Assembly (NCBI GenBank): GCA_963786955.1
Contig: CAWBAT010000005.1
Coordinates: 832,001 to 896,000 of the forward strand
Length of the DNA stretch: 64,000 nucleotides
Source of the DNA: an uncultured Acidimicrobiia bacterium
Lineage (GTDB): Bacteria > Acidobacteriota > Terriglobia > Versatilivoradales > Versatilivoraceae
Direction of reading: 5' to 3'
Numbering within the stretch: the first letter of the stretch is position 1; the number at the start of each line of letters is the position of its first letter. A model generated the notes under the pieces. It had not been told where the DNA came from. It did not search any database and saw only the letters and a list, made by a program, of their open reading frames with translations. This document shows, piece by piece, positions 30,224 to 53,368 of this stretch. The position numbers and the translations under genes were made by a program.

Positions 30224-30377
30224 TGGAGGGGGAGTAACGCACATCGAAGACGGAAGCCGTAACCGCTTAGATTAAGAGATTGCCGATATGGAGCGAGAGC
30301 AAGGAATAGCGTCGTGCGCTCGCTTTAATGAATTCAACAGGACAATGAGGGGTCGAGGGAGTGAGGAGATGTTTCTT

Positions 30378-30725
30378 CTAGATAGTCTTCATTTCCTTGA
30401 TCTTTGCAGCTTTTCCTCTAAGCGCCCGCAAATAATAGAGCTTGGCTCTGCGAACCTTTCCTTTCTTGGCAACTTCAATCTTATCAATGACCGGAGAATG
30501 TAAAGGGAAAATCCTTTCAACGCCCTGGCCAAAGGAGGTCTTCCGTACCGTAAAAGTGGAACGTAGATCGCCATTCTTCCTTGCGATCACAACTCCTTCG
30601 AAAACCTGAATTCTTTCTTTATCGCCTTCCTTAATCTTGACATGCACTCGAACGGTGTCTCCGACCCGGAACTCGGGGAGGTCGGTCCGCATTTCTTCTT
30701 TTTCGACAATATTTAATGCATTCAT
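30378..30725 (-). CDS. rplS: 50S ribosomal protein L19
   Basis: [33 protein letters not shown]. Confidence 0.98.
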
Positions 30726-30746
30726 TGCAGTTAGCCTGTCTTTAAC

Positions 30747-31524: not shown

Positions 31525-31559
31525 CGCGCCGGGAGGAAACACAGATAGCGGAACAGGGA

Positions 31560-32087
31560 TTATAATTCTTCCAGTCCTTCAGGCAGGTCACACCGAATCA
31601 ATCTCTCTTGTAGATCAATTCCCAGAAAAAAAGCTTCAACGAAAGGGACGAGGAATTCTCTGGAGGCTCCCTGGATCTTCAGCAGATAGTTCGACCCATA
31701 TTGGACCACTTCGATGACCTTTCCATATTCCTCACCGGACTTACCGATCAGGGAGCAACCCACTAGATCGTCTTGGAAATAAGTACCCGCCGGGAGAGGA
31801 ATTTTTTCCGACTCAAGAACAGTGACCTCGTATCCGGCCAGTTTCTTGGCCTGATCAATCGAATCGATTCCTTGAAACTTCAGAATGACTCTGTTCTTGT
31901 GGAGCCAAAAAGAATCGAGAACAAGTTCCCGTGACGCTTCTCCATCCTTTTCCAGCACCACCTCACGGAGATGAGAGAAACGTTCAGGAAAATCCGTCAG
32001 CAGATCCGCCGCAACTTCCCCTCGGTTGCCTTGAGTCCTGGCCACGCGTGCCACTGAGATTCGGGGGCCGTCTGTCAAAACCTTCAC
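31560..32087 (-). CDS. rimM: 16S rRNA processing protein
   Basis: [26 protein letters not shown]; position between khpA and trmD. Confidence 0.93.
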
Positions 32088-34646: not shown

Positions 34647-35300
34647 TCAAGACGTCAGGGATCGATCCATGAGCATGGGCCCCCCATGTTCAGCGATTGA
34701 CGCAAACATGGCGCGGCCGTTGAAACGATGCGTCTGGTAAGACCGCTCGACGCGCTTCACGAATCCGAGCTTGCGGAAGATGTGTTGAGATACCTTGTTC
34801 GTCGCCTCGGTGACTGCCATCCGGTAACCTCTTTTTGCGCCGTGATCGAGACAGGTCATGATGAGTTGCTGGGCCACTCCCTTTCCGGCAACTTTTTCGG
34901 ATACTCCCAAAAGGAAAAGGTGGAGTGACTCACCCGGACATATAACCCTGTCGCCTCGGTACTCGGTTTCCAACTGGCCCAGGATGTCGAAGACTGGATC
35001 GAACTTGGCGCCCAGTCGATCCACCCCGTCAGGCATTTCCGCTGCGCTATCCTCCGTCAGCAGCGCGCCAACAAGTTCCCCCGTACCAGAATGCCGGGCC
35101 ACGATGGTCAGGCCCTCGGCCTCCGCTTTTGGACAGAATAGTCGGGCGAAGGCCTCGAACTCGAAATCGGTTAGCCCGACTGCGACGGCGGGCGGATCGC
35201 GACGACTGAACACCTCGGCCAGGAGTTTCGCCATTGCGTCCGCGTCGGAAGCGGCATAGAGGCGGTACTCTATCGGCATGATTTCAGGTAAATCTGTCAT
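34647..35300 (-). CDS. GNAT acetyltransferase
   Basis: LHLFLLGVSEKVAGKGVA, EATNKVSQHIFRKLGF. Confidence 0.8.
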   Translation of the reverse strand: MTDLPEIMPIEYRLYAASDADAMAKLLAEVFSRRDPPAVAVGLTDFEFEAFARLFCPKAEAEGLTIVARHSGTGELVGALLTEDSAAEMPDGVDRLGAKFDPVFDILGQLETEYRGDRVICPGESLHLFLLGVSEKVAGKGVAQQLIMTCLDHGAKRGYRMAVTEATNKVSQHIFRKLGFVKRVERSYQTHRFNGRAMFASIAEHGGPMLMDRSLTS

Positions 35301-35537: not shown

Positions 35538-36672
35538 GTGGTATGCGTCATAAATAACTTTACTTATATTACTGACTTGGCTATGATGTCGAGTCATGAG
35601 AATAGCCCCGATGATTTTCCTTTCGACCGAAGAACACTCTATTTTGGAAACCTGGGCACGGAGTCGAAGCATGCCTCTGCGAGTCGTTCAGCGGGCGCAG
35701 ATCATTCAGATGGCGGCTGAGGGTATGCAGAGTCAGGCTATCGCGCAGGCGCTGCGAGTATCTCGCCCTACGGTACAACTCTGGCGCCAGCGGTTTCTGG
35801 CGCTTCGGCTGGAAGGTCTGGAGAAGGATGCGCCGCGCCCCGGACGCTTTCCGAAAATTCCTGACCCAAAGATTCGAGCCGTCATAGAAGCAACGTTGCA
35901 TAGCAAACCGCCGAATGCGACGCACTGGAGCACCCGCACGATGGCAGCGGCTCAGGGGCTTAGTGAAGCCACCATCCGGCGGGTCTGGAAACAACATAAT
36001 CTGAAGCCCCACCTGACGAAGACCTTTAAGCTCAGCCGAGACAAACGGTTTATCGAGAAACTGCGTGACATTGTGGGCTTGTACCTGAATCCTCCCGATA
36101 AGTCGCTGGTGCTGTGCGTCGACGAGAAATCGCAGATTCAAGCCCTGGATCGAACTCAGCCGGGGTTGCCTTTGAAGAAGGGGCGTTGTGGCACCCTGAC
36201 TCACGATTACAAACGCCACGGCACCACGACGCTGTATGCCGCCCTGAGCCTGCTGGACGGCCGCGTGATCGGCGATTGTATGCCGAGGCATCGCCACCAG
36301 GAGTTCATTCGGTTTTTGAAGCGGATCGACTGCCAGACTCCCGATGAGCTGAACCTGCATCTGATCGTCGACAATTACGGAACACACAAACATCCCCGCG
36401 TAGTGTCCTGGCTTCGACGCCACCCCAGGTTTCATTTGCACTTTACTCCGACCTCGAGCTCTTGGCTGAATCTGGTAGAACGCTGGTTTCGCAATCTCAC
36501 GGAGAAACGCATTCGCCGCGGTTCTTTTGCCAGTGTTCCTGATTTGGTAGCCGTCATCGAAGACTACTTGCGGAAGCATAACGAAAAACCTCAGGTTTTC
36601 GTTTGGACAGCAACAGCTGACCAAATACTGGCCAAAGTCATCAAATGTAAAGAAGCGTTAGACGCACTACAC
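35538..36672 (+). mobile_element. IS630-family insertion sequence
   Basis: Imperfect terminal IRs (GTGGTATGCGTCATAAATAACTTTAC vs GTGTAGTGCGTCTAACGCTTCTTTAC), both ends in CTAG, TA duplicated at 35536-37 and 36673-74. Confidence 0.92.
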
Positions 36673-37111: not shown

Positions 37112-37870
37112 TCAAGAACTGCGTTTATTGGCCGCGAAACGAAGACGGACATAATCGGCCGTCCATTGCCCATCTTCCCCGCACAACTCAGCGCATAAGG
37201 CTTCCTGCACTTCCATGATAAATTTCAGCCTCTCCGTCGGGGCCAGTGCAGAAGTAAAAGATTCGGCAAAGGTTTCCAGCCAGCCCGTGATGTTCCCGGG
37301 TAATGGGGTCGGGCGCGGGAAAAGGGCAATGGACGTTACTTCAAAGCCGCCGCATTCCAGACGCTCTTGATACTCTGCCACGGTCGGGAAATACCAAGGA
37401 TTCAGCTCATCAGCCTTGATTCCACGGCGCGACAGGGCCGCATCCAAGGCCGAGACGATCTTTGCCACGCAGCCGTGCCCGCCCATTTCGGCGACGAAAC
37501 GGCCCCCTGGTTTAAGTGTCCGCCGAACACCGGCGATCATAAGGTCTGTTCTTTTTATCCAATGAAGGACGGCGTTGCTGAAAACAGCGTCAAACTCCTG
37601 ATCGAACGGCAGAGCCTCCGCATCCATGACGAATGCCTGGATGCCCATTTGTCGGACAGCCTCCACCTGGGCCGCGCTGCTGTCGATCCCGACAACGTGG
37701 CAGCCCATCGAAGCTATCTTCTGGGTCAATACACCGTCCCCGCAACCAAAGTCGAGTATGCGTTCGCCCGGCTTGGGGTTCAGTAATTCGACCACGGGCA
37801 TGCCGAAATCCGAGACGAAACGAGCATTTTTGGAATAGCGTTCCGGATCCCACGTCTGGAAACTGGACAT
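37112..37870 (-). CDS. Class I SAM methyltransferase (Tam-like)
   Basis: WDPERY, ILDFGCGDG, FDAVFSNAVLHW, ADYVRLRF. Confidence 0.9.
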   Translation of the reverse strand: MSSFQTWDPERYSKNARFVSDFGMPVVELLNPKPGERILDFGCGDGVLTQKIASMGCHVVGIDSSAAQVEAVRQMGIQAFVMDAEALPFDQEFDAVFSNAVLHWIKRTDLMIAGVRRTLKPGGRFVAEMGGHGCVAKIVSALDAALSRRGIKADELNPWYFPTVAEYQERLECGGFEVTSIALFPRPTPLPGNITGWLETFAESFTSALAPTERLKFIMEVQEALCAELCGEDGQWTADYVRLRFAANKRSS

Positions 37871-37902
37871 ACAAATCACCTTGAGAGCGCAATTGTTGCA
37901 CA

Positions 37903-38694
37903 CTATAAGCGAATACCGGGGCTGAGTAAACCGATGAAGAGTAGTGCGACGATAGTGCCGGCCACACAACAACCAAAGCTGAAAGGCAGAGTATGACCGG
38001 CACAGGGTTCTTGCCTCGTTTGCTTCTCCACGAGTGATAGAAGAAAAGCCTGCCCAGCCATGGCCCCAAATCCGCTGCTTGCCCCTGAGCTGAGGATCAG
38101 TGAGGGGCCGATAGGGTTCAGAGCAGAGCCGAGAACAAACAACAATCCGCCAGCGATGTAGGTAGGAAGGAGTACGTGGGCTGATTCGTACTGTGAGATA
38201 AGGCCTCGTCGAACTAGAGAAACGATTTGACGGCTTGCACTCCAGATGACCAGCACGTAAAGCAAGATTCCCAGAAGACTCAGGAGCGTGCGCCAAAGCC
38301 AAGCGGGTTCCGTACCAGGAAAGACTACAGCCCAGTCTCACATGTTCAAGAGGCCTGAGAGTAGCAAGTATCCCGTTCCGTTGAACAAGTTCGTCGCGGC
38401 AAACACCCCAAGGAAGACACTCCAGGCGTTCCAAGCGTTGCGGCGACGAAATAAGATGTCCGCCATTACGCCGGCAACAATGTTAGCTACAGAACCTGCC
38501 GCCGCGACGAACCGACTGTTCGTATCCGTCTGCAGTGCGACGGTGCTCAAGGACAGGGCACGGACGTCGGGGGAGAGTGCACAGGCGAGCCCATGGCCAA
38601 GAAGCTCATGGACCATGTCACAGCCGGCATACGCTACGACCGCATTGGAAACCACAGTCGCCAAGCTGGAGGTTGAAGGTGTGGAGTCCGTCAT
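37903..38694 (-). CDS. Membrane protein with HExxH-like motif (M50-like), frameshifted
   Basis: VHELLGHG, VAAAGSVAN, multiple TM segments across two ORFs. Confidence 0.55.
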
Positions 38695-39659: not shown

Positions 39660-40247
39660 TTAGGTCTTCAAAATGGCGATGGCTTCAATTTCAACTAAGA
39701 GATCCTCGCGACAGAGCCTCGCCTGGATGCCAGTGCTCGCTGGCAGGGGATCCAGCCCCAACCACCTGAAAAAAGCCGTTCGGACTTGGTTGAATTCCTT
39801 ATAATCCCGTTCAATATCTCGCAAATAGCAGCTGCAGCGCACGATATCCTTCCAGGTAGCCCCTTCGGATCTTAGCAACGTCGTAATATTGCGGTACGTT
39901 CTCCAGCATTGAGCCCGGAAGTCACCTGCATGAACCGTTCGGCCCAGCTCATCCACACTGGCTGTGCCGGAAATAAGCAACATGGAAAACCCGTTCAAAT
40001 CGACTCGCATGCCTCGTGTGAAGGAGGACGGGATAGGATAGTCGTAAGCCTCATTGAGTACGCTAGGCGCCTGTATTGCGCGTTTCGGCACCAGATCCGC
40101 TTCGGCTCGCCTTAGAGAAAGAGGAGGCGGTTGTAGTTCGCCCGTTGGAGAAAGGATACCGAGGGCGTTGAGTTCTTCCCGTTGCGCAGGGGAGAGTATT
40201 TCTGGGGCAAAGACGTCATCCACGACTTCCTTGATATTTTGAATCAT
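39660..40247 (-). CDS. Rid-superfamily protein resembling the FkbO/Hyg5 chorismatase C-terminal domain
   Basis: PSSFTRG, ISGTASV, HAGD...Q, YLR, LCREDLLVEIEA. Confidence 0.75.
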   Translation of the reverse strand: MIQNIKEVVDDVFAPEILSPAQREELNALGILSPTGELQPPPLSLRRAEADLVPKRAIQAPSVLNEAYDYPIPSSFTRGMRVDLNGFSMLLISGTASVDELGRTVHAGDFRAQCWRTYRNITTLLRSEGATWKDIVRCSCYLRDIERDYKEFNQVRTAFFRWLGLDPLPASTGIQARLCREDLLVEIEAIAILKT

Positions 40248-40410: not shown

Positions 40411-41301
40411 TCAGGCTAAGGCGGCCGAGGTTTTTCGCTCCATAAGATCCTCTTCTTCGGTCTTTCCCATTTTGTGAATCTTATTCATCAATTTCTGAAA
40501 GGTAGCCGGACGGATCGCCTGGTCGGGGTCGCATCGCAGCTGTGACCTGGGAGTGCGAGCACCCATGACCTCAATGAGCAGGCCATCCGCTCCAAACCCG
40601 AGAGCTGCTTGGGCGGCCCACGGCACCATGTCCGCACGGCCGGTAGCGTGACTCGGATCTACAATGACCGGGAGATAAGTGGCTTCACGAACCGCTTTGA
40701 CAACACTCAAATCCAAACAGAACCGGGAATACTCCCCTGCCCCGAAAGAACGGATTCCTCGCTCACACAGTACGATCTGCGTGTTCCCTTCCTTGGCGAT
40801 GTATTCAGCAGCGCAAAGCCATTCTTGCAGTGTTGCCGCCATGCCTCTCTTCAACAACACAGGCTTGCCGAGCTTTCCTAACTCCGTTAACAGTGGGAAA
40901 CACTGCATGTTGCGGGAACCTACTTGCAGCATATCCACATAGCGACCAACAAGCTCTACCAGCCTGACGTCGAGGACTTCTGTGACAACGGGCAACCCAG
41001 TTTGTTCCCGCACTGCAGCAAGGATTTTCAGTCCTTCTTCACCAAGCCCTTGAAAATCGTAAGGCGAGGTCCGTGGCTTGAAGGCGCCCCCACGCAGCAT
41101 CTGCGCCCCACAGCTCTTTACCTCCAAGGCGATTTCCAGAGTCTGTTCGAGACTTTCCACCGTACAAGGGCCGGCAATGACTGCGGGTTGGCGGCCTCCA
41201 AAAGCCACCCCGGCGACAGACACAACTTTGCTCGCAGTCCCTATGGAGTACTTGCAGTCCCCGTTGCGACTGACGATTCGGTAAGCATTATGATTAGCCA
41301 T
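40411..41301 (-). CDS. aroF: Type I-beta DAHP synthase without regulatory domain
   Basis: [46 protein letters not shown]. Confidence 0.92.
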
Positions 41302-41599
41302 TTGCTTTTTAGCGCCCTATCCGAGTAGTACGTGCAGTTACTGGTTCTATTACTTACATCTTCGTAATCCAAGAAGTGTCACAGTAATGTCAACAAGACA
41401 CCGATCTATTGACCAGGATGTAAATATTCTCTAGACTTGAGCAATATTGGAGGCATCGGAGGAGTTGTAGATTGGGACCCCGTTTAAGACCCTCGAAGTC
41501 TGACGAAGCAAGGATCAAAAGGGATGCAGAAGGATGCTCCGTAGGCAGCTCGACACCAATTGATCCGACTTGCTTTAATCGATAGGAGAGAAAAATACA

Positions 41600-42079
41600 A
41601 TGAGTTTTGGCAAGCAGATCCTAAGGCTACGAATTCAGTCAAAGAAAACCCAGCAGGAAATTTCCCAGTTGACAGGGTTGGCCGTTTCATATCTGTCTAG
41701 ATTAGAAAACAACCACGTGACTCCTTCCATTCGAACTCTCTCCAAGATCTCAAAAGCGTTGAGTGTGCCGACATCAGTCTTCTTCGATTCCGAACCGGTA
41801 CTGGAAGAAAGCGACCGCTGTCCTGTCAGTACCTCAGGACAGTGTATCCTCGATCAAATGTTGGTCGCTCGCGGACGAAAACCCAATGGACACGGGGAGG
41901 GTTATTCACCTCATCAGCTGGAAGTCCTTCGTCAATGCAATTTTTTGCTCCACGAAGGAGACCGAGAAATCGTCGCTTCTCTCTCTACGATGATTAAGTC
42001 TTTGCTCGCACTCTCGATCTCCAAGAGCCGGAAACATAAATCCCTCGGGGCAAAGTATTCGCCGACACAAGGAAGATAA
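41600..42079 (+). CDS. XRE-family HTH regulator with Cys-containing C-terminal domain
   Basis: TQQEISQLTGLAVSYLSRLENNHVTPSI; RCPVSTSGQC...QC. Confidence 0.85.
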   Translation: MSFGKQILRLRIQSKKTQQEISQLTGLAVSYLSRLENNHVTPSIRTLSKISKALSVPTSVFFDSEPVLEESDRCPVSTSGQCILDQMLVARGRKPNGHGEGYSPHQLEVLRQCNFLLHEGDREIVASLSTMIKSLLALSISKSRKHKSLGAKYSPTQGR

Positions 42080-42597
42080 TGACAGAGGCGTATCATTGCT
42101 CAAGACGTAAGATGTCATCCTACGTTTTCCACCGCAAATACCTCGCACCCACCTTGACTCAGGGATTTGCAAAAATTGCGATTCTGCGATTTAGCTGCTG
42201 CGATTCTATCGCAGACCTCTTGTGATCCTCGATGGACCAGCTTAACGCGCCTATCAATCGAGACTGCCCGTTTGGTAATGCAGACGCGAGAAAAAGCGCA
42301 TCAACCGGCGTCTCAGAACTTTGCATCTCAACCTAAGAGTATCAATCTGGACTGGAGAATATTTCGCGACCGCTGCGTCAATTGAGCCAGTCCCTCCCTT
42401 CGGTATCTCGCACGATACATTAGTGTGACATTCAGAATTCAAACTGAAGGACTTAGCCATGCATTCAGCGTGGCAATCTGAATGCTCATTAGGAATTCGA
42501 ATATTGGATTGAAGGGATTGGTGTGTTGAAGGACACGAAGAGATTGACCGGATCCTAGGGGGTCTTATGGTAGTGCCGGTCGTATACTAGAATTGGC

Positions 42598-42627
42598 GGC
42601 ATGAGTGGGCCAATATGCCCTTTTTTT
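42598..42627 (+). terminator. Possible intrinsic terminator upstream of the HZS-like operon
   Basis: GGCAT/ATGCC stem followed by C and T7; weak stem. Confidence 0.4.
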
Positions 42628-42785
42628 ATGTCCACCTGTCGCGATCAAAGACGTCCACATCACCACCGATTGCTGGATTTCTTGATGGTTCTTCCACCGT
42701 ATAGGGGTCTGTCCAAATAACATTCTGGAACCTTTTCTCTTCGATCCTCAGCCTTCGGCCGAATTGCGTCAGGGGGCAATCTGCC

Positions 42786-44423
42786 ATGAAATCACAACTT
42801 TTGCTTGCCCTCGGTCTGGCATTCTGTGTCCTTTTGGCCGCAGGGACTTCCCAGCTTCCTGTCTATTTGGATGTCACCAAACAGGCCGGAATTGAATTTG
42901 ACCATTGCCTGGGCGCCAAGAAGATCAGCAACATTGTGGAGGCCACAGGGTCCGGCGCCGCATGGGTAGACTTTGACAAGGACGGGTGGCTGGACCTTTA
43001 TCTCGTCAACGGGTGTTACCTCGAAGGGGTCAGCGATCCGCGATCCCCATACAAAGGGAAAAAAATCACGGACCATTTGTACCGGAATAATGGGAATGGG
43101 ACCTTTTCCGATGTCACCGAGAAAGCCGGCCTCGGTGGCAAAGAGGATGGTTACGGGATGGCCGTTCAGGTCGGCGACTATGACAATGATGGATACCCGG
43201 ACTTGTATGTGACCAACTTTGGAGGCAATGTTCTCTATCACAACAATGGCAATGGTACTTTTACTGACGTGACCGAAAGAGCGGGAGTCGCTTGCAAGGG
43301 CCACTGGACCACGGGGGCAGCGTTCCTGGACTATGATAAGGACGGACTCTTGGACCTCTTTGTGGGAATCTATATCAAATTTGATGCCAGCTACCGACTC
43401 TACTATGAAGCCGACGTTTATCCCGGCCCGCTGGCGTATCCGGCGCAAAAGAGTTTTCTCTTCCACAACAATGGCAACGGAACTTTCACCGACGTCACCC
43501 AAAAAGCCAAAGTAGACAAGGAAGGCCGCGCAATGGGGGCTCTCACGGTTGACTACGATGACGATGGTTACCCCGATTTTTTTGTAGCCAACGACGCCAC
43601 CCCCAATCATCTCTTTCACAATGATCACGACGGAACATTTTCTGAAGTGGGCTTGCATGCAGCCGTCGCTTTCGGCCAAAACGGTAATGCGGCTGCTTCC
43701 ATGGGGGGAGACTGGGGCGATTTCGATCGGGATGGCCGGCTCGATCTGATCGTTCCAGCCATGAGTTACAACGCCCTCTACCGAAACCTGGGCAGGGGGC
43801 TCTTTGAAGATGTCGCCGTAGAAGCCGGGTTGGCCATCATCAGCGGCCAGTATTGGTCATGGGGAGGCAAATTCATTGATTACGACAATGACGGATACCT
43901 GGATGTCATGGTGGTCAATGGTGATGGGCACCGACTCACTGATACTCAGGAAGCCATTCTGGCGAGGAATGTAGCCGGCAGTGGCGGGAGTCGTGTCTTT
44001 CAAGATGTAGCCGCGGATTCAGGAGAATTCTTCCATCAAAAAATGGTCGCCCGAGGACTCGCGCTCGGTGACTATGACAATGATGGGGACATCGACGCCT
44101 TGATCTGTAATATCAACCAACCCGTGATTCTGCTTCGCAACGAGGGAGGGAACAGGAACAACTGGCTGCAGCTCAGCCTACAGGGTCGTAAAAGTAATCG
44201 CGATGCATTAGGTACCAAGGTGACCGTTAGAGCTGGAACCCTGCTGCAGTACGATGAAATGAAGAATGGCACGAGCTATCTTTCCGCCAACGACCCACGC
44301 ATGCACTTCGGCCTCGGGCAGGCCACGAAGGTAGACGAGGTAACCGTAAAATGGCCAAGTGGGGTGACCCAAAAATTCAAGGATGTGAAAATCAATCAAG
44401 TGCTCAAGTTCGTCGAACCCTAA
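42786..44423 (+). CDS. Secreted FG-GAP/ASPIC-UnbV (CRTAC1-like) protein
   Basis: Signal peptide; repeated DxDxDGxxDL and LYRNNGNGTFSDVT; C-terminal HFGLG...VKWPSG. Confidence 0.92.
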   Translation: MKSQLLLALGLAFCVLLAAGTSQLPVYLDVTKQAGIEFDHCLGAKKISNIVEATGSGAAWVDFDKDGWLDLYLVNGCYLEGVSDPRSPYKGKKITDHLYRNNGNGTFSDVTEKAGLGGKEDGYGMAVQVGDYDNDGYPDLYVTNFGGNVLYHNNGNGTFTDVTERAGVACKGHWTTGAAFLDYDKDGLLDLFVGIYIKFDASYRLYYEADVYPGPLAYPAQKSFLFHNNGNGTFTDVTQKAKVDKEGRAMGALTVDYDDDGYPDFFVANDATPNHLFHNDHDGTFSEVGLHAAVAFGQNGNAAASMGGDWGDFDRDGRLDLIVPAMSYNALYRNLGRGLFEDVAVEAGLAIISGQYWSWGGKFIDYDNDGYLDVMVVNGDGHRLTDTQEAILARNVAGSGGSRVFQDVAADSGEFFHQKMVARGLALGDYDNDGDIDALICNINQPVILLRNEGGNRNNWLQLSLQGRKSNRDALGTKVTVRAGTLLQYDEMKNGTSYLSANDPRMHFGLGQATKVDEVTVKWPSGVTQKFKDVKINQVLKFVEP

Positions 44424-45916
44424 AGATTGTGCTGTCGGTCGTTCTTGGGTCGGGCCTCTTGTTTTTTCAGGCGTTGCGTTCAGCGGTTTCTGAACCGCAA
44501 CGTTTCCCTTTGATCTTTACCCAGTTCGCTCATCGGACCGGAGTATCGACTCCTTCCAATCACCCCTTTCAAGGGCAGCTCTCACGCCCCGAGGGCAGTC
44601 GCTTGGTATTGATGTCATCCTCCGGCAAGCTCAAAGTTCTCACCCCTGAATTGGCGGCAGCCGCAGAAGCTTCGATTTCCTTCGACGGCAAGAAGGTGTT
44701 GTTTTCCGGGAAACGACTTGCTCAGGACAACTGGGACATCTGGGAAATGGAAGTGGATGGGCAGAACAAACATCAGATTACCCACCAGCTTAAAGACTGC
44801 GGAGAACCTCATTATCTGGCCATGAGCGCTCTCAATTATCCCGAATATGACGAAAAGGTCCGTTGGATCACATTTACCTCGACCGCCGCAGGGACCTACG
44901 AAGAATGGGGACCCGCCCTGGCTACGTCCCTCTATGTGCAGAATCTTGATCCCATCATGGGGCGCGGGGTTGTCACTTGGCGAATTACTTTCAATCTGTC
45001 GAGCGATTTTTCTCCCACTGTTCTCCATGATGGGCGAACCCTCTTTACCAGCCATCAGATGGGGGACCGCAAACAAAATTCAGTGGGTCGCTTTCTGTTG
45101 CTGGCTTCCAATTGGGACGGCACCGGATTGAACCTGTTTTGCGGGGATGAGCAGGGTCATCGCATGAAGACCATGGCGTGCGAGATGCCCGACCGGACAT
45201 TGGTTTTCGTGGATTCCGATGGGAATACACCGGATGGCAGCGGGGAGTTAGCTCGCGTCTCATTTCGTCGCCCTTTGCACAGCTATGAGCCACTCAGCAA
45301 AGGAGAGGGGCGCTATCGTAATCCCCAAAGTCTGCCCGACGGTTCTCTGCTTGTTTCCTACGCCACGGGAGAAAATGCCTACGGGCTCTACTTTTTCGAT
45401 TTCGACAAGAAGTGCCCGGGCCGGAAAATTTTTGGTGATTCGAAGTGGGAAGCTGTCCAAGCAGTTCCTGTGTTGCCCACCGTTGAGCCGACAGGCTTGA
45501 TCAGTGCTGTTTATGACGAGCAGACTGCCGGAGACCTGCAGTGCCTGAACGTTTATGATTCTGACCGACCCGAGGCGTCTGACATCCGAAAAGGGGAGGT
45601 GAAACAAGTCCGCTTGGTCCAAGGGATTCCATCCCTGACAGCTTCCTCATCCCCGGAAACGCGTATCCTGGGGGAAGCCCCGGTGGAATCGGATGGTTCT
45701 TTTTTTGTGCGGGTTCCGGCTGACATCCCGTTTTACATCCAAACCCTAAACGCCCAAGGGCAGCCACTACAGACGATGCACCGATGGATATGGGTCCGCA
45801 AGGGGACGAGCCGAAGCTGCATCGGCTGCCATGAGGATAAGGAACTGGCTCCCGAAAACAGGATCACCGAGGCACTTCTCAAGGCGAAGCCCCATCCGGT
45901 GGGGTTAAAGCGTTGA
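44351..45916 (+). CDS. Hydrazine synthase alpha-subunit-like heme protein
   Basis: PEGSRLVL, LKVLT, IWEM.VDG, ITFNLSSDFSP, NWDG, YRNP..LPD..LVSYA, VESDGS, RSCIGCH; true start may be GTG at 44429. Confidence 0.85.
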   Translation: MAKWGDPKIQGCENQSSAQVRRTLKIVLSVVLGSGLLFFQALRSAVSEPQRFPLIFTQFAHRTGVSTPSNHPFQGQLSRPEGSRLVLMSSSGKLKVLTPELAAAAEASISFDGKKVLFSGKRLAQDNWDIWEMEVDGQNKHQITHQLKDCGEPHYLAMSALNYPEYDEKVRWITFTSTAAGTYEEWGPALATSLYVQNLDPIMGRGVVTWRITFNLSSDFSPTVLHDGRTLFTSHQMGDRKQNSVGRFLLLASNWDGTGLNLFCGDEQGHRMKTMACEMPDRTLVFVDSDGNTPDGSGELARVSFRRPLHSYEPLSKGEGRYRNPQSLPDGSLLVSYATGENAYGLYFFDFDKKCPGRKIFGDSKWEAVQAVPVLPTVEPTGLISAVYDEQTAGDLQCLNVYDSDRPEASDIRKGEVKQVRLVQGIPSLTASSSPETRILGEAPVESDGSFFVRVPADIPFYIQTLNAQGQPLQTMHRWIWVRKGTSRSCIGCHEDKELAPENRITEALLKAKPHPVGLKR

Positions 45917-45992
45917 GTTGGAGGATTTGGAGAGCAATGTTGCTGCTTGTCAAGAGAGAACAGATTTTCAGTAAGGGTGGAGGAGTAATTCA

Positions 45993-48548
45993 TTGGCAGC
46001 TCACAAAATGCAGAACCTGGCCGTGATTGCAGGCATCCTCGTTCTGCTCACTTCACTCAGCTTGTCCATGAACTCTGGGCAGTGCGCCTTGGATGGCGGC
46101 AAGCGCAGCCTGTACGCCGTGCCTGAAGATGATCAATATAAATCGCCGATTCAATTGGCCATAAGTAAAGATGGGCAGCGTCTTTTTGTCGCTTGCGAAA
46201 ACAGTAACGAAGTCCTTGTGATCGATATCCGGCAGAACCGGGTTATTCAAAACATCAAGGTGGGGAAACACCCCTTCGGCGTGACGCTCGATCCTGACGA
46301 GAAGAAACTCTATGTCAGCAACCGATGGGATAATTCCTTGACCGTGATTAGCCTGACTTTGCTCGTTGCGGAAAAGACAGTTCCCATCGGGAATGACCCT
46401 CATCAAATGCGGACCGATGCCTCCGGGAAAGTCCTATACGTCAGTAATCTGACCACTCGTGATATCTCGGTGGTGGACACAGCCACGATGCAGGAGACTA
46501 AACGACTGGATGCAGGAGTCTCGCCCTTCGGTATCAGCTTGTCTCCTGACGGAAAATTTCTCTATGCCACCAATCAGTTGTCGAGCCCCGTACCTTTCCG
46601 TAGCGCTCCAGTAACGGAGCTGACGATCGTGGATACAGCCAGCCAGCTCGTAACGGGACGACTGCGGCTGGTATCCACCGTCATTGCCCAGGATGTGGCA
46701 GTCACTCCAGACAGCCAGTTTGCCGTGATCGCCGTCGAAATGCCCAAGAATCTGCTGCCTGAGACTCAGATTTATCAGGGCTGGATGGTCACCCATGGTT
46801 TCGCAATAGCGGAAGCGGGGCCCCGTGGCCGGCTGGCCTACTTCCTGCTTGACGAACCGAATCTTTATTATGCTGATGCTTACGGAGTGGCCATCTCGCC
46901 GGATGGACATCGTCTTTACATCTCATCGAGCGGCGTGGATGTGATTTCCGTCGTCAATCTGGACAAAATTTATGAGCTGCTCAAAGTCAAAGACGGCAAG
47001 ATTGGAATCCCCGATGAAACCATTAAGCTGTATGCCCGGCATCTGGCGCTAAGTTCCGAGTATGTTCAAGCAAGGATTCCAACTGGCAGTAATCCCAAGG
47101 ATATCATCCTCTCCCCGGATGGGAGCCGTCTCTACGTAGCCAACCGTCTATCCGACACTATCCTCATTGTGGACACCAAGTCGAATAAGCCGGCCGGGAC
47201 CATTGAACTGGGTGGCCCTCGTCTGGAGACCGAGCTTCGCAAGGGAGAGAAGCTTTTCAATTACAGCAGCATCAGCTTTCAGAAACAGTTGAGCTGCAAC
47301 ACGTGCCACCCCGAGTATCATCTGGACGGGTTGACCTATGACATTGTCGCGCCAAGCGATCCCATCGGGCAAAACCTGGTCGACAACCGGACGATGCGCG
47401 GTATCGCCTACACCGGCCCCTTTAAGTGGAATGGGAAAAACCCCTCTTTAGCGCGGCAAGATGGGCCTCGCGCAGCTCAATTGTTCTTCAGGTCGCATGG
47501 CTTCGATCCCACTCAGTTGCAGCAAATCGTCAAGTTTGTCGAATCGCTGGGTATCCATCCCAGCCGCTTTCTAGCAGCCGCCGGCACCTTTACCGATCAA
47601 CAGGACGAAGGAAGGATTCTATTTGAGAGGGCGTTTGTCAGATCAGGCCCTCTGGCGGGACGGTATATTCCAGTCGGCAATCGTTGTATCAGTTGCCACC
47701 AGCCTCCCTTCTATACAGACCATGATGTGCACAACGTCGGGACCCAATCCTATACCGATGCCGAGGATGTAGTTGACACTCCGCAGCTCAGCAATGTGTA
47801 TGAAAACGCTCCATTCCTGCATGATGGACGTTGTTACAGTCTGGAAGAAATCTGGACCGTCCACAACCCGGATGACATGCATGGAGCCACCAATGGTTCC
47901 ATGGACAAGCGTGAGTTAAATTCTCTGATTGAATTCTTGAAAACCTTGTCGGCCCGTGAGCCTATGCCCGACAAGGAATTCCTGGAAACCACTTTCCCGA
48001 AGGGGACAGAGAAATCGAATCCATTTTATGTGGAGGGTCTGGTCAATCCGGTCAAACCTGATCTGCGATACCTGGGCAACAAAGCCTGTGCCGAATGCCA
48101 TGTGAAGGAGTACAAGGCCTGGCTTGGCAGTGGACATGCCCGGACCTGGGTCATGCTTGGCTCACGAAATGCCACATTGGTTGGCCAGCAACTGGGTATC
48201 AAGAACTCAAACCTTCAATACAACGTCAAGTGTCTGATGTGCCATGGAACAGCTGCCGATGTCGTCACAGATTCCCGGGCCGCTAATTTCCACATCGAGG
48301 AAGGGGTGAAATGCGAGTCTTGCCACGGCCCCGGCGAAGAGCACACATTGTTTATGAAGCAGAATCCCAAGGGGCCCATGGGAAAATTGAAAATGCCAAC
48401 CCCTGAAGATTGCCTAGTCTGTCATAGGCCGAAGCCTTCCCATGCCCAGCTGAAAAAGGACCCCTTCGATCTCGACACTGACATGAAGAAGATCTCGCAT
48501 TGGAAAGAAAAAATAGCGCCGCGATCTGCTCATGGATCGGGCATGTAG
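45993..48548 (+). CDS. Fused hydrazine synthase beta/gamma-like protein with C-terminal c554-type tetraheme domain
   Basis: YncE-type propeller (PKNLLP, ARIPTG); CcP/MauG-like diheme (CNTCH, CISCH, DTPQL, HDG, DMHG); then CAECH, CLMCH, CESCH, CLVCH. Confidence 0.87.
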   Translation: MAAHKMQNLAVIAGILVLLTSLSLSMNSGQCALDGGKRSLYAVPEDDQYKSPIQLAISKDGQRLFVACENSNEVLVIDIRQNRVIQNIKVGKHPFGVTLDPDEKKLYVSNRWDNSLTVISLTLLVAEKTVPIGNDPHQMRTDASGKVLYVSNLTTRDISVVDTATMQETKRLDAGVSPFGISLSPDGKFLYATNQLSSPVPFRSAPVTELTIVDTASQLVTGRLRLVSTVIAQDVAVTPDSQFAVIAVEMPKNLLPETQIYQGWMVTHGFAIAEAGPRGRLAYFLLDEPNLYYADAYGVAISPDGHRLYISSSGVDVISVVNLDKIYELLKVKDGKIGIPDETIKLYARHLALSSEYVQARIPTGSNPKDIILSPDGSRLYVANRLSDTILIVDTKSNKPAGTIELGGPRLETELRKGEKLFNYSSISFQKQLSCNTCHPEYHLDGLTYDIVAPSDPIGQNLVDNRTMRGIAYTGPFKWNGKNPSLARQDGPRAAQLFFRSHGFDPTQLQQIVKFVESLGIHPSRFLAAAGTFTDQQDEGRILFERAFVRSGPLAGRYIPVGNRCISCHQPPFYTDHDVHNVGTQSYTDAEDVVDTPQLSNVYENAPFLHDGRCYSLEEIWTVHNPDDMHGATNGSMDKRELNSLIEFLKTLSAREPMPDKEFLETTFPKGTEKSNPFYVEGLVNPVKPDLRYLGNKACAECHVKEYKAWLGSGHARTWVMLGSRNATLVGQQLGIKNSNLQYNVKCLMCHGTAADVVTDSRAANFHIEEGVKCESCHGPGEEHTLFMKQNPKGPMGKLKMPTPEDCLVCHRPKPSHAQLKKDPFDLDTDMKKISHWKEKIAPRSAHGSGM

Positions 48549-48640
48549 TCCTTATGCTTCTCATGAGTCTCTATCCTCGGGAGAAGAGGGGACGGTTTTT
48601 ACATCACCGGAAGTAGTTTCTAAATTCTTATTGTTTTCGC

Positions 48641-49840
48641 TTGGAGGCAATAATGAAAAGCAGGACACGAGTCATATTAATTTCCTTGTTTTGGCTGATC
48701 TCTTCTTTTGGCATTTTGGGGATGCCACCGTCCAATACGGCTGAGCAAGCCCCCGCTAGAGCTGAAAAGGAAGAATGGCCTCGGGTCTACACAGAGTGGC
48801 AATCTTTCCACAGCGAGGATGGTCTTCCTTCCAACAAAGTTTATGCTGTCGCCGTGGATGGTGATCGCGTCTGGTTTGGAACTGATAACGGTTTGGCTTT
48901 GTATGAACAGGGAAAATGGACCACATTTGGCGTTGAGGATGGTTTGGCCTATCCCGCCGTTCTCTGCCTGGCGGTCGATCCGGTTACTCGCGACCTGTGG
49001 GCCGGGACGATGAAAGGATTGTCGCATTTCTCCGCAGGTAAATTCGAAAGCTTCACCCAATTCAACAGCGGACTCCCCAACGATGTGGTGTTTGGGGTTT
49101 GCGTGGAAAACCAGAACGTCTGGATCGCTACGACGGCCGGCACCGCTCGCTTTCATACGCACGAGAAGACCTGGGATGTTTATACACCCGCCAATTCCCC
49201 GCAACATGAGCCCTGGGGCTATTTCGTCACTTACGCAGACGGAAAGGTTTATGCCGCTCTTTGGGGTGGCGGAGTATTGGAATTCGATATCGCAACCCAG
49301 GGATGGAAGGCCTGGCGGGATCCGGACGGCGAGATGGAAGTGGATGTATTTCGAGATGATGGACTCATCCACGTGATTACGACTAGCGTCAGCTACGTGG
49401 AGAAGATTCTCTGGGTGTCTACTTATTTTGGCATGAGCCGCTATGACGGCCGTCATTGGCGGGGATATATTGAAGGTGATTCAGGATTGCCCAGCAATTT
49501 CATCAATATGGTCAAAGCCCGAAATAATGTCGCCTGGGTTTGCACGGATCGTGGCTTGGGCACCGTCAATGGCGATACGAACCGCTGGGTGAGCTACGCC
49601 CCTGTTGATCCGCTCTGGGCAAAGCAAAAAAGTCCCGCAGGGGTTCAAGACCCGATCGAGGGAAACCAAGGTTGGGAAGCAAAGATCTTTAATGACAGCA
49701 AGCTCATTAAAACGGTGAAACTGGAACACGGACTTGCCAACAATCACATCTATGGCGTCGATTTTCAGGGAGAGGATATCTGGGTAGCGACCTCCAAGGG
49801 AGTAAGTCATGCCACTTGGAGAGAAGGAGGTGCTCAGTGA
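48641..49840 (+). CDS. Secreted beta-propeller protein (two-component regulator propeller-type repeats)
   Basis: Repeats GLPSNKV, GLPNDVV, GLPSNFI, GLANNHI followed by W.GT..GL-like strands; no kinase domain. Confidence 0.85.
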   Translation: MEAIMKSRTRVILISLFWLISSFGILGMPPSNTAEQAPARAEKEEWPRVYTEWQSFHSEDGLPSNKVYAVAVDGDRVWFGTDNGLALYEQGKWTTFGVEDGLAYPAVLCLAVDPVTRDLWAGTMKGLSHFSAGKFESFTQFNSGLPNDVVFGVCVENQNVWIATTAGTARFHTHEKTWDVYTPANSPQHEPWGYFVTYADGKVYAALWGGGVLEFDIATQGWKAWRDPDGEMEVDVFRDDGLIHVITTSVSYVEKILWVSTYFGMSRYDGRHWRGYIEGDSGLPSNFINMVKARNNVAWVCTDRGLGTVNGDTNRWVSYAPVDPLWAKQKSPAGVQDPIEGNQGWEAKIFNDSKLIKTVKLEHGLANNHIYGVDFQGEDIWVATSKGVSHATWREGGAQ

Positions 49841-51223
49841 AATCGAAGATCTTGTTCAGCTGGTTCGGTATTGATGGCAGTCATGATTATTGCAGGCCTC
49901 ATTCCGGTTGCCGAAGAAAAAAAATTGCCTTCAAGCGATACTGGAACTGCCGGGAACGCGGCAACCGCTTCCTCCTCGGCCGAACAGTCCCCGGAGCCCA
50001 AGAAAAAGGAACTCTATGGCAACATGCCGGAAGATCTTGAGCCATTTGGCAAATTTGTGAAAGAGCCCTACAAGAAATATTTCGTGCCCAGTGATGCAGC
50101 GATCACTTTTTGGGGACCCGGGCGCGAAAAATCCGAACCTGAAGTGGATACTGTAAAGATTGGGTTGCTGGCCCCGGTAGAGCGTAGCCACGAAACTTAT
50201 ATGGGCCGCTCGATATTGAACGGAATGACCCTTGCGCTTGAAGAAGCCAACGCCGCAGGAGGATATAAAGGAAAGCCATTTGAGGCCGTGGTGAAAAACG
50301 ACTCCGGTTTGTGGGGGGCCTCCGCCAATGAAATCATCAACTTTACTTACGAAGAAAAAGTCTGGGCTGTCATTGGTACTGTGGATGGGGCCAACAGCCA
50401 CATTGCCATTCGTGTGGCTCTGCGCACCGATATCCCGATGATGAACGTGGCTGACCTTGACCCGACCTTGATGGAAACGCGCATCCCCTGGGTTTTTCGC
50501 AATGTCCAGGACGACCGGCAAATGGCCTACACGATTGCCTATTACGTCTACAAACAGTTGGGGTTTAACAAAGTGGCCATTCTGCGCGCCAATAATCGCT
50601 ACGGCCGTTTTGGTGTGGCCCAATTTCGAAAAGCCTCCATCCGGCTGAGCAAACCTGCCCCGATCGAAGTCAATTATGAGATCAACTACGATCAGGTCAA
50701 CCTGGATTTCATCACTCAGATGAGTCGTCTCAAAGAAGCAAATCCGGACGGAATTATCCTCTGGGCGGACCCTGTACCGGCAGGCCTACTCGTAAAGAAG
50801 ATTCGGGAAATGGGAATGAGCATTCCCGTCGTTGCCTGCGAACGGATCCTCAACCCTGCTTTCATCAGGGAAGCCGGGCCAGCCGCCGAAGGGGTGGTGG
50901 CTACGTCGCCATTCAATTCTGAGTCCGGAGAGTCCGAAGTTCGTCGAATTCAAGAAGAAGTACAAGGCACACTTCGCAGCGACCCTGATATGTATGCGGC
51001 TTATTCTTATGATGGAACTAACATGGTCATTGCTGCCATCCATAAAGCCGGCTTGAATCGATATCGCATCCGTGACGAAATGACGTTGCAGCAAGATTGG
51101 GAAGGAGTCACTGGAATCTGCCATTATGACGATGTGTTCACGAATCGTTCACCCGTCACCGTGGCCACCGTAAAAAATGGCAAATGGGTCTATGGCATCC
51201 CCAAATTGGAGCATGTCTTTTGA
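49837..51223 (+). CDS. LivJ-type (type I periplasmic) substrate-binding protein
   Basis: VKIGLLAP, ALEEANAAGG, AAYSYDG, EGVTG; GTGA coupling with the upstream gene; indels near the start and at about 50930-50980. Confidence 0.85.
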
Positions 51224-51225
51224 TC

Positions 51226-52448
51226 ATGAACAGTTTGTATTCCACATTGGTATGTCTGCTCGTATTGGCGGCCGCGCCGCAGGCACCTTATCTCGATTTT
51301 TCACATGCTGGGGCTGGGTTCTATGGAAGCGGCAGGGAAATCCCAGAACCGATAGACCTCACTTCAGTCAGGATCGGGGTGCTGGGGCCCGAAACGAGTC
51401 CCGAGGGGAGGCAGATGCGGTCCGCTATCCAAATGGCTATCGATGAAGCCAATGCGCGCGGCGGTTACGGGTTAAAAGTCCAGCTCCTTAGAGCATCTCC
51501 ATATGGCGAAAAATCTCCCTGTTCCGAGGAGGCTCGGGTGATTCCGTACGAAATGGTTTTTCGCCCCGACGATGGCCCCTGGGGGACAGCCACCAGCCAG
51601 GTTGTCAAATTCGCCTATGAAGACAGGGTCTGGACGATCATCGGTGGACTCGATGGCCAACGAACACATATCGCCGAATTGGTCGTGACTAAAGCCTGGG
51701 TACCGGTTATCAGCCCCGGGACGACCGATTCCACTGTTGACTACGCCAACGTCCCCTGGGTTTTCCGGGCCGTCCCCGCCGACAGCCGACAGGCCGACGC
51801 TTTGCTGGCCTTTGCCAACAAACAAGGCTATAGCCGACTGGTCGTCCTGTCTGAAATAGAAAGAGAATCCTATGCCAGTTTCAAGCGATTGAGTGAAAGT
51901 GCGCGGCATGGGCATACTACATTTGCGATGCATTTGGATTATCCGCCGGAAAATCCGGTGGCCGTCATTCCTCAACTGCAGGGTATTTCGTTCGATGCCG
52001 CCGTGATTTGGGGAAGGGGAGAGACCGCCATGCCGCTCATCGAAGGGTTGCGCCGAGCCGGCATTCAGGTACCCATCCTGGCTTGTTCGGCATTGGCTAC
52101 GCCGGAAGTGGCAAAGAAACAGCCTGTGTTGGGAAATCTGACAGTCGTGGCCCCGTATGATTTAAGCCGTCACGATTTTGAGCTGGAGAACTTCCAGCGA
52201 CGATATGAATCTCAAACCGGAACCCGGGCAGGGCCGCTGGCGGTTTATTCTTATGATGTGGCTCGGCTCGTCATCGGTGCCATAGAAAAGCAGGGCTCAA
52301 TCGAGCACTCATTCGAGATGAGCTGGCGGGAACTAGGTTTAACGGCCTCGCAGGACCTTATCGGTTCAGTTGCTTGGGAGGCAATGAGGCTGATCCCGTG
52401 CTGATGACACTTCAAGAAAACGGTTGGAGCCGAATTCAGGGCTTCTAA
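51226..52448 (+). CDS. Second LivJ-type substrate-binding protein (3' frameshift)
   Basis: VRIGVLGP, AIDEANARGG, VPWVFR, YSYDVA; C-terminus continues in another frame to TAA at 52448. Confidence 0.82.
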
Positions 52449-52585
52449 ATCCTGCGAAAGCGCCATTTGTCCTCAGGCTAAAAACCAACAGAAACTCCCC
52501 CCAGTAGCCACTTAAGACAAACTTAGCCTGACTCTTCACTCAGCCGAGATTCATTCTCTTTTAAATGGAAGCGGGTACTAGTGGC

Positions 52586-53368
52586 TTAGTGGAGGACCTT
52601 TCCTGTGCGAGACCAACGGGTCTTGGATATGAAGTGAGCCACTACCGATGCATACTCCTGCACGTACTCGGTAATCGACTTTGGACGAGGATCATACGGA
52701 GGCGCTTCATACGACCAATAAATAAAGAGTGGTTTGCCAATGATATTCTTCCCATTGACTACGCCCCAGTATCGACTGTCATTACTATTATCTCGGTTGT
52801 CTCCCATCATGAAATAGCTGTCCGGGGGTATCGCGATCGGGCCGAAGTTATCTCTGACAATATAATCGTCAGGAATACCTGAATCGCGTTCGTAGATCTT
52901 CGAGTCGATAAAGTGTTTGTAGGACTCCTTTAGCTCCGCCCCGTTGATGTAGACCCTTTTGTCTCGAATCTCCAATGTTTCGCCGGGTAATCCAATGACT
53001 CTTTTGATGAACGGAATTTTCGGGTTCTCCGGGGATTTGAATGCCACGATTTCTCCTCGACCGATCGTTCGGGTCGGCAAAATTCTGAGGAGCATTTCCG
53101 GGTAATTTGCAGGGAACGCAAACTTATCCAGGAAAAAATGATCGCCCACCAGAATCGTTGGCTTCATGGATTCCGTGGGAACTTGCGTGGCTTGGGCGAT
53201 GAAATTCGTGAAGAAGAAAACAAAAATTAAGCTAAACACCAGACTTTCCAGCCACTCTCGCGCGGCGCTCTTCCCACGCGGTGGGGATGGCAGAGTCTGG
53301 TTGAGATCTGAGTCGGGATCCAAATTTTGAGTTGGCACTAAATCTTCTTTATTCCTTCTAAGAAACAT
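52586..53368 (-). CDS. lepB: Signal peptidase I
   Basis: PTESMKPT, FIKRVIGLPG, MGDNRDNSNDSRYWG. Confidence 0.95.
   Translation of the reverse strand: MFLRRNKEDLVPTQNLDPDSDLNQTLPSPPRGKSAAREWLESLVFSLIFVFFFTNFIAQATQVPTESMKPTILVGDHFFLDKFAFPANYPEMLLRILPTRTIGRGEIVAFKSPENPKIPFIKRVIGLPGETLEIRDKRVYINGAELKESYKHFIDSKIYERDSGIPDDYIVRDNFGPIAIPPDSYFMMGDNRDNSNDSRYWGVVNGKNIIGKPLFIYWSYEAPPYDPRPKSITEYVQEYASVVAHFISKTRWSRTGKVLH

Follow-up and report, generated by a model that had tools for sequence, protein, structure and literature searches.

A short, single-haem relative of hydrazine synthase's alpha subunit encoded in a conserved gene cassette of a probable acidobacterium

The DNA considered here, hereafter the window, is a stretch of 64,000 nucleotides (nt) from contig CAWBAT010000005.1 of assembly GCA_963786955.1 (positions 832,001 to 896,000), and all coordinates below are counted from its first letter. 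On its forward strand, an open reading frame (ORF) at 44351..45916, which spans 521 amino acids (aa) from the first ATG, codes for a protein related to HzsA, the alpha subunit of the hydrazine synthase (HZS) of anaerobic ammonium-oxidizing (anammox) bacteria. This HzsA-like protein displays a signal peptide, a TolB-like beta-propeller and an HZS_alpha middle domain with one c-type haem motif, and its gene is flanked by those for a secreted FG-GAP repeat and ASPIC/UnbV protein of the CRTAC1-like type (42786..44423, +; PF13517, E 1.3e-52; PF07593, E 2e-24) and for an 851-aa HzsB-HzsC-like fusion with six CxxCH motifs (45993..48548, +; PF13435 and PF03150). The observations described below make it quite probable that the HzsA-like protein is part, as the alpha-like subunit, of a periplasmic haem-protein complex that resembles hydrazine synthase but is not of the anammox kind; its source is probably an acidobacterium.

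Sequence, profile and structure comparisons converge on HzsA of Kuenenia stuttgartiensis (PDB 5C2V chain A, 5C2V_A), and because of these matches we regard the HzsA-like protein as truly homologous to HzsA in its propeller and middle domains, with a likeness far beyond chance. The HZS_alpha domain (PF18582) scores 79 bits against a Pfam cut-off of 26.6; a phmmer search of the PDB returned HzsA as the only match (5C2V_A, E 3.8e-47), with an alignment that ends at ...CSGCHY, and a profile built from 83 family members matched the same chain with E 3.5e-95. An AlphaFold2 (AF2) model of the protein (pLDDT 82.9, pTM 0.85) retrieves 5C2V_A in Foldseek (E 1.1e-33, TMq 0.80), and in VIA-align its residues 24-494 superimpose on entry residues 55-623 (Z 36.6, root-mean-square deviation 2.8 over 446 residues, 31% identity). 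The next-best VIA-align matches are TolB-type propellers (Z ~25); these six-bladed beta-propellers (PDB 4R40, 2HQS) share the fold of residues ~22-351 but have no haem domain and an unrelated function, and the common fold is uninformative on chemistry. The NCBIfam equivalog model for HzsA (NF052339) gives the protein 193.6 bits, about a quarter of its cut-off of 800.

Beyond the N-terminal propeller and the middle domain as such, the two proteins have in common the V-E-x-D-G-S motif of the latter domain and the place of the haem alphaI CxxCH, at which CIGCH of the HzsA-like protein aligns with CSGCH of HzsA. Thereafter they differ: HzsA continues as H-Y-G-S-Y, whereas the HzsA-like protein reads H-E-D-K-E, lacks the Tyr ligand as well as a conserved zinc-binding Cys, and ends at the point at which HzsA goes on into its alphaII part, the entire segment past entry residue 623, including the bis-His haem alphaII domain, being missing. 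According to passages of two published accounts, His587 and Cys303 of HzsA bind zinc, Tyr591 ligates haem alphaI and the C-terminal domain holds the bis-His haem alphaII (PMC12758564, PMC12607021); the Kuenenia facts given in the initial annotation of the window, which was made from the letters of the DNA, agree with these passages and with the alignment to 5C2V_A (...RICSGCHY). The setting is also unlike that of HzsA, as the HzsA-like protein has a Sec-type signal peptide and its host shows no anammox gene set. The family to which it belongs is large: at E <= 1e-30 it numbers 388 cluster representatives, and species-representative genomes contain 537 loci. The protein is an ordinary member of it: an H-E-[DN]-x-E motif is the rule there and HzsA is the exception.

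The sole CxxCH of the protein lies in the stretch C-I-G-C-H-E-D-K-E-L-A-P-E-N-R (45818..45862, +), in which CIGCH (residues 490-494, nt 45818-45832) is directly followed by EDKE (nt 45833-45844), placing Glu at His+1 and at His+4, the latter with the spacing of Tyr591 in HzsA. This is the local version of a near-invariant family hallmark, C-x-G-C-H-E-[DN]-x-E-L-x-P-E-N. We examined it in the best 120 listed of 527 homologues found at E <= 1e-5 among 8000 candidates scored, and in an alignment of 76 rows that comprises the window and 75 species-representative loci. The string C-[IVL]-G-C-H-E-[ND]-[KR]-E is present in 120/120 listed homologues, His+4 being Glu in 120/120 and a Tyr occurring within His+1 to His+8 in 1/120. 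Across the 76 rows, numbered after a 495-aa form of the protein that begins at an alternative start (see below; Cys238, Cys464, Cys467, His468), C464, C467, H468, P475 and N477 are found in 76/76, E469 in 73/76 and E472 in 74/76. Likewise, 132 of 149 cluster representatives at 50% identity show a W..W..CxxCH context, with Glu after the His in 124 of the 132, and Tyr at +4 is absent from the 30 commonest five-residue strings (122 proteins) among such representatives. The HzsA-like protein itself has no Tyr within 8 residues of its haem His, and the initial annotation is right in that the haem-ligating Tyr is missing and Glu occupies His+4.

H468 is the only invariant His of the 76-row alignment, in which no Met and no other His reaches 93%, and the residues adjacent to the haem are the most conserved part of the alpha-like protein. 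We infer that the haem is attached to C-I-G-C-H in the usual fashion and that the His of the motif is its proximal ligand, neither Tyr ligation nor a His/Cys zinc site being in place. The family has no further conserved His or Met, so that the distal side is likely to be open; the haem would then serve to bind a substrate and not simply to transfer electrons. Tuning of the proximal side, or hydrogen-bonding to it, is the probable role of the invariant Glu residues that follow the His.

The Cys that the initial annotation had considered a possibly retained zinc ligand is present in NWDGTGLNLFCGDE (codon 45140..45142, +; residue 264 of 521, or 238 of 495), and lies 0-3 residues from the alphaC303 position. 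The pairwise phmmer alignment places it on alphaC303, only through a 3-residue gap, and the ungapped family profile places Cys238 3 residues before alphaC303; the Cys of the HzsA chain is equated with alphaC303 by a chain offset of 27 (His587 = chain residue 560). It occurs in 70/120 listed homologues, being enriched in short forms (58/75) as opposed to long two-haem forms (12/44), and in only 11/76 species-representative rows, where Gly (22) and Tyr (20) are commoner. Compared with the His587/Cys303 zinc site of HzsA, then, the His is present and the Cys is offset by 0-3 residues depending on the alignment. Judging from these counts, Cys238 is a subclade trait rather than a conserved ligand, with an ambiguous alignment to alphaC303; of the earlier suggestion, the presence of a Cys close to the ligand position stands and its retention as a zinc ligand does not follow. 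Two further Cys outside the haem motif, Cys124 (44798-44800) and Cys372 (45542-45544), covary, with Cys/Cys in most of the 76 rows and Ala/Gly in 15, a pattern that fits a disulfide lost as a pair in one lineage. Cys124 is conserved in HzsA too (in the chain's LKGTCRSP).

The stop codon, a TGA at 45914-45916 (+), lies 27 codons past the haem His and is genuine. A single CIGCH followed by EDKE and by an end some 25 residues later had been read from the sequence at the outset, and all of this is confirmed, with a tail of 27 residues after the His; the same reading had called for a check for a frameshift that might carry the protein past 45916. Contigs of three other DNA runs (X1, X2 and X7, sediment metagenomes) cross the stop without indels and show no frameshift, and in run X2 the change 45915 G>A makes the TGA read TAA. 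Downstream of the stop is a spacer of 76 nt, followed by the next gene, which opens with a signal peptide of its own; a tblastn search of the window with the tails of 44 long homologues found no alphaII-like coding remnant past the stop, the best hit (E 0.019) lying inside the signal peptide of that next gene. The 120 listed homologues comprise 75 short forms, 44 in which a second CxxCH follows ~51 residues on, and a single long form that lacks it; a tail of exactly 27 residues recurs in 57/120. In the long forms, the C-terminal domain can be aligned to chain residues 639-769 of 5C2V_A, where the second CxxCH of HzsA is located (E 8.2e-17). These results bear out the earlier claim that haem alphaII is absent together with its domain: the protein ends 27 residues past the alphaI His and its model covers entry residues 55-623 only.

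In trees of the 76 rows that were built without the tail columns (FastTree and IQ-TREE quick), the row of the window clusters with two short rows from Acidobacteriota (L013, L014), and the sister group consists of long two-haem Terriglobia rows (L016, L002, L003). The short or long state changes 8 times on the tree, with at least 4 changes forced by starred branches, and both programs agree; because of these 8 changes, the alphaII domain can be said to come and go within one cassette type. The short form is accordingly a natural one, in which the alphaII domain was either never present or cleanly lost. There is no sign of a separately encoded alphaII for the complex, as alphaII-like (PSCyt1-type) domains occur at at least 15 other places in the genome and none of these is near the locus. 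In a passage of PMC12607021, haem alphaII of HZS is given no hypothesised function, since it lies beyond electron-transfer range. As there is no Tyr at or near His+4 and alphaII is genuinely absent, the site cannot be the Tyr-ligated, zinc-associated alphaI site of HZS. The earlier notion of a remodelled site implies an altered HzsA, whereas the protein is an ordinary member of its own family. A different fate of the C-terminus is seen in 24/76 alpha-like proteins (the 'long_nohaem' forms), which keep a long C-terminal domain and have lost its CxxCH; they mostly form one Verrucomicrobiota clade (L043-L051, L059, L063-L078).

The gene model allows two starts, and the choice between them leaves the main finding unaffected. 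The ATG at 44351 has a GAGG ~10 nt upstream and gives an RRTLK n-region together with a 73-nt overlap with the upstream gene; a GTG at 44429, which comes after the upstream stop at 44423, gives the 495-aa form, and this is the form chosen by gene callers for the cluster representative P0001, 99% identical to the HzsA-like protein. Within this overlap (44351-44423), the first ATG results from conserved K-W-P codons of the upstream FG-GAP gene when these are read in another frame. The 'MAKW' with which several homologues begin may thus stem from the overlap, and would then be no evidence for the earlier start. Three contigs of a metatranscriptome run (X19) fall inside the gene with 100% identity; they are only a hint of its transcription, with DNA carry-over being possible.

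The HzsB-HzsC-like (beta-gamma) fusion consists of a 7-bladed YVTN propeller, a dihaem domain of the cytochrome c peroxidase (CCP)/MauG-like type (CNTCH, CISCH) and a C-terminal tetrahaem cytochrome c554 domain (CAECH, CLMCH, CESCH, CLVCH). It matches both remaining chains of the HZS structure (5C2V_B, E 1.4e-40; 5C2V_C, E 5.1e-13) and falls far below the NCBIfam cut-offs (NF052340, 168.2 bits vs 560; NF052342, 163.3 vs 1250). Where HzsC has the His of PFRHEG it has Trp, and where HzsC has the Cys of SLDRVCG it has Asp; by the description in part of PMC12758564 these are the gammaHis144 and gammaCys165 positions, and the gamma hallmarks of HZS, including the third haem link through gammaCys165, are thus wanting in the fusion. 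It shares with the dihaem CCP/MauG family (PF03150) the two CxxCH motifs with a conserved Trp between them, and differs from that family in that it is joined to a 7-bladed propeller and to a c554 module, with an alpha-like haem propeller as its partner. The c554 module is mobile within the cassette: in Acidobacteriota it is fused to the C-terminus of the beta-gamma protein, in Latescibacterota and Gemmatimonadota loci (L021-L036, L052) it is a separate ORF after the beta-gamma gene with 3, 4 or 8 CxxCH, and in Planctomycetaceae and Verrucomicrobia loci (L040, L044-L046) it stands before the beta-gamma gene.

Further downstream follow a secreted Reg_prop-type beta-propeller protein (48641..49840, +; PF07494) and two periplasmic binding proteins assigned by family match to Peripla_BP_6 (49871..51223, +, LivJ-like; 51184..52404, +). 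Both are orphans, with no permease or ATPase gene beside them; the best PDB relatives of the former are branched-chain amino-acid and aromatic-acid binding proteins. We compared these neighbours across the best 80 of the 537 species-representative loci, many being truncated where the contig ends. At least 67/80 have the FG-GAP gene beside the alpha-like gene, either upstream (24, order F-A-B, for FG-GAP, alpha-like and beta-gamma) or downstream (43, order A-F-B), and the beta-gamma gene comes after the alpha-like gene in at least 64/80; the Reg_prop gene is found downstream in 54/80 and a binding-protein gene in 44/80. The cassette is conserved across Acidobacteriota, Latescibacterota, Gemmatimonadota, Verrucomicrobiota and Planctomycetota. 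A tail of 27 residues occurs in 8/80 loci, 6 of which have a complete beta-gamma gene with 6 CxxCH, and the exact type of the window (F-A-B, tail 27, six-CxxCH beta-gamma) recurs in the Acidobacteriota loci L006, L007, L010, L013, L014 and L017.

Much of this organization has been described by Hagglund et al. (Genome Biol Evol 2025; PMC12758564), whose account, in the parts drawn on here, distinguishes three clades (I-III) of HZS homologues outside anammox bacteria, with many Acidobacteriota hits in the supplementary tables; Opitutus terrae, Paludibaculum fermentans and Syntrophobacter fumaroxidans are among the carriers in culture that it names. As in their clusters, the alpha-like gene lies directly upstream of a fused beta-gamma gene (44351-45916, then 45993-48548), and its product has the PF18582 domain and the HzsA fold that they describe for the alpha-like subunit. 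Their clade III has FG-GAP/CRTAC1 upstream and two binding-protein genes downstream, an order matched here by 42786-44423 on one side and by 49871-51223 and 51184-52404 on the other. Haem alphaII and some 100 C-terminal residues are absent from their clades II and III, they describe a two-residue gap at Ser590/Tyr591 and propose a canonical CxxCH haem pocket, and Trp stands in place of gammaHis144. The HzsA-like protein of the window likewise lacks this C-terminal part and Tyr591, a canonical pocket is proposed for it as well, and its beta-gamma partner has the same Trp. The main points of the initial annotation's interpretation were hence largely anticipated by these sections of Hagglund et al., and an earlier proposal, in a passage of PMC10732223, is that hzs-like genes constitute a wider enzyme family with other substrates. 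There are also differences. The beta-gamma protein of the window carries a C-terminal c554 domain with four additional CxxCH, whereas clade III is described with one extra haem motif and clade I with N-terminal c554 domains; the window's subclade has a Cys 0-3 residues from the alphaC303 position, whereas no homologue conserves the zinc Cys according to that text; and its relevant passages make no mention of the Reg_prop propeller, Rid-like and DAHP synthase genes. What the locus adds is small: the C-terminal c554 subtype, the subclade Cys near C303, a quantified H-E-[DN]-x-E-L-x-P-E-N motif, and repeated loss or gain of alphaII.

The host genome (5.65 Mb in 9 contigs, 93% complete) has one HZS_alpha copy. 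Its RuvB shares 74% and 64% identity with the RuvB of two Acidobacteriota metagenome-assembled genomes, against 58% for Verrucomicrobiales, 54% for Latescibacterota and ~50% for Planctomycetaceae, and by this marker the host is probably an acidobacterium. An HZS_alpha match is present in 10/40 relatives, including 1/2 in the same genus, and the cassette is thus accessory and patchy among relatives. A search for the hydroxylamine oxidoreductase/hydrazine dehydrogenase (HAO/HDH) family (PF13447) returned no match in the genome, the same search being silent in all 14 control genomes too. Multihaem cytochromes are abundant, with 20 ORFs of at least 5 CxxCH, of which one has 19 and several stand in a row on contig C3; examples are C4:838062-840893 (-), C3:190742-195733 (+) and C5:655564-658734 (+).

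By analogy with HZS, the alpha-like and beta-gamma-like proteins would come together in one complex, in which electrons might enter through the c554 and gammaII-like haems and reach a peroxidase-like gammaI-type haem, with a small intermediate then passing from the gammaI-type haem to the alpha haem. As a best guess, the complex would carry out redox chemistry at two sites in the periplasm, its substrate being either a small N- or O-oxide or else an amine or aromatic ligand brought by the two orphan binding proteins; that this enzyme makes hydrazine is very unlikely. Several points weigh against such a picture. The proposed chemistry is a guess, and the formation of a complex is suggested by homology and gene order only. 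The axial ligation is not seen directly in these data: the AF2 model contains no haem, and its pLDDT dips under 50 in the stretch just past the His (residues 468-474). A partner subunit could supply a distal ligand. An arrangement with the His off the iron is possible because Glu at His+4 has the Tyr591-to-His587 spacing and the subclade Cys lies 0-3 residues from alphaC303. The silence of PF13447 is weak evidence because 0/14 control genomes matched. Finally, a part of PMC11828985 has its authors holding that HzsA-like proteins of ten phyla, Acidobacteriota among them, are capable of anammox chemistry.

The foremost rival, which we consider unlikely, takes the alpha-like protein to be non-catalytic, either with a six-coordinate electron-transfer haem whose distal ligand comes from the partner, or as a propeller scaffold, and moves all chemistry to the beta-gamma protein with its dihaem domain of the CCP/MauG-like type, which might reduce peroxide or oxidise a protein or small molecule. 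Such a division of labour would suit a beta-gamma protein that keeps the CCP/MauG hallmarks of two CxxCH and a conserved Trp (also noted in part of PMC12758564) and has its own tetrahaem wire, and it would suit a dispensable alphaII domain; yet the surroundings of the alpha haem are conserved beyond the needs of a scaffold or wire, and the subunit has no conserved distal His or Met. A slighter chance still falls to a retained HZS-type architecture, with the motif His off the iron and binding zinc with the nearby Cys, and with the invariant Glu at His+4 serving instead of Tyr591 as an axial carboxylate ligand; the result would be an unusual haem for N-N or N-O chemistry of a new kind. The near-universal Glu at His+4 (120/120 and 74/76) with the Tyr591 spacing, the pairwise alignment of the Cys with alphaC303, its enrichment in short forms (58/75 vs 12/44) and the low model confidence just past the His can all be read in this way. 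His ligation by CxxCH is, however, an overwhelming rule and carboxylate-ligated c-haems are very rare, which counts against this arrangement; the Cys is missing in 65/76 rows while H-E-x-x-E stays, leaving no conserved pair, and the profile alignment displaces it by 3 residues. In the pertinent section of Hagglund et al. (PMC12758564), a two-residue gap is aligned at Ser590/Tyr591, and the structure predicted there points to a canonical pocket. In a variant of the same low standing, confined to the Cys-bearing short-form subclade, His and Cys would hold a metal ion and Glu at His+4 would ligate the iron, giving a very low-potential c-type haem for condensation or oxidation in ordinary sediment heterotrophs.

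That the protein belongs to a functional, divergent hydrazine synthase, and its host to cryptic anammox bacteria outside Brocadiia, is highly improbable. Alpha, beta and gamma homologues do lie side by side, the structural match is a strong one, multihaem cytochromes are plentiful in the genome, and the case has been argued for HzsA-like genes of ten phyla (in part of PMC11828985); but three NCBIfam equivalog scores are far under their cut-offs (193.6 vs 800, 168.2 vs 560 and 56.5 vs 625), Tyr591 is absent, the zinc Cys is not conserved, and Asp and Trp occupy the gammaCys165 and gammaHis144 positions. A PF13447 match is likewise wanting in the genome, as in the 14 control genomes, and a cassette held by 10/40 relatives and spread over many heterotrophic phyla speaks against it, as do Hagglund et al., who reject this interpretation in the corresponding section (PMC12758564). 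Least credible of all, to the point of being negligible, is a short C-terminus that stems from an assembly or frameshift artefact or from a decaying gene. While the assembly quality of the contig is uncertain and sister lineages have long forms, the indel-free contigs of three independent DNA runs, the stop-to-stop change TGA>TAA in one of them, a tail length shared with 57/120 listed homologues, the lack of an alphaII remnant downstream, and a next gene with its own signal peptide 76 nt on all speak for a natural end. The non-anammox, hydrazine-synthase-like complex that we favour thus remains the best account of the locus.

These distinctions matter since HzsA-like genes serve as anammox markers, and the two literature positions conflict: passages of PMC11828985 count such genes of ten phyla as anammox potential, and those of PMC12758564 reject this on residue grounds. 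The locus offers a clean, well-assembled example for the latter view, with the Tyr ligand, the alphaII domain and the gamma-subunit hallmarks all missing, and it indicates that such genes are not to be called hzsA. It also poses a tractable question, namely the role of a widespread, putative periplasmic complex with two haem sites that is constantly accompanied by FG-GAP, propeller and binding proteins and linked to a pair of DAHP synthase and Rid genes. This complex may also show the evolutionary origin of hydrazine synthase.

The said pair is a divergent Rid/YjgF-family protein with an N-terminal extension of ~85 residues (39660..40247, -; PF01042) and a second copy of a type I-beta DAHP synthase (40411..41301, -; NF006421, 376.1 bits vs 335; TIGR01361, 340.9 vs 267.75), another copy over cut-off lying on a different contig of the genome. 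Both genes are head-to-head with the cassette, and their homologues travel with it in other phyla: a Rid-like homologue occurs in 31/80 loci and a DAHP synthase homologue in 14/80, usually on the cassette's own strand. Such co-occurrence may point to a cytoplasmic step that is tied to the cassette and acts on a small molecule, perhaps one derived from shikimate or chorismate. The Rid-like protein has weak matches, far below cut-offs, to TIGR00004 and to the FkbO/Hyg5 chorismatases; an assignment as a chorismatase was considered and is not supported by such scores (TIGR04444, 37 bits vs 325; FkbO 4BPS, E 9e-4).

Other neighbours have no homologue in the 80 loci and were rejected as members of the cassette. 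These include, on the minus strand, three short ORFs (29606-32087), a ThrC-like gene (33141-34469), a GNAT gene (34647-35300), a gene without family assignment (35581-36624), a methyltransferase gene (37112-38434) and an HTH gene (41600-42079), as well as a downstream signal peptidase gene (52586-53368). A scan of 41200-53000 yielded 8 promoter-like and 16 terminator-like sites, against 8.6 and 12.5 in shuffled sequences, and does not define the limits of an operon. Elsewhere in the window, a lactate permease match (18983-20011) covers only profile positions 1-203 of 522, and an ORF for an ABC-F-type ATPase (22460-23650) is preceded by overlapping ORFs; these two may be split or frameshifted genes.

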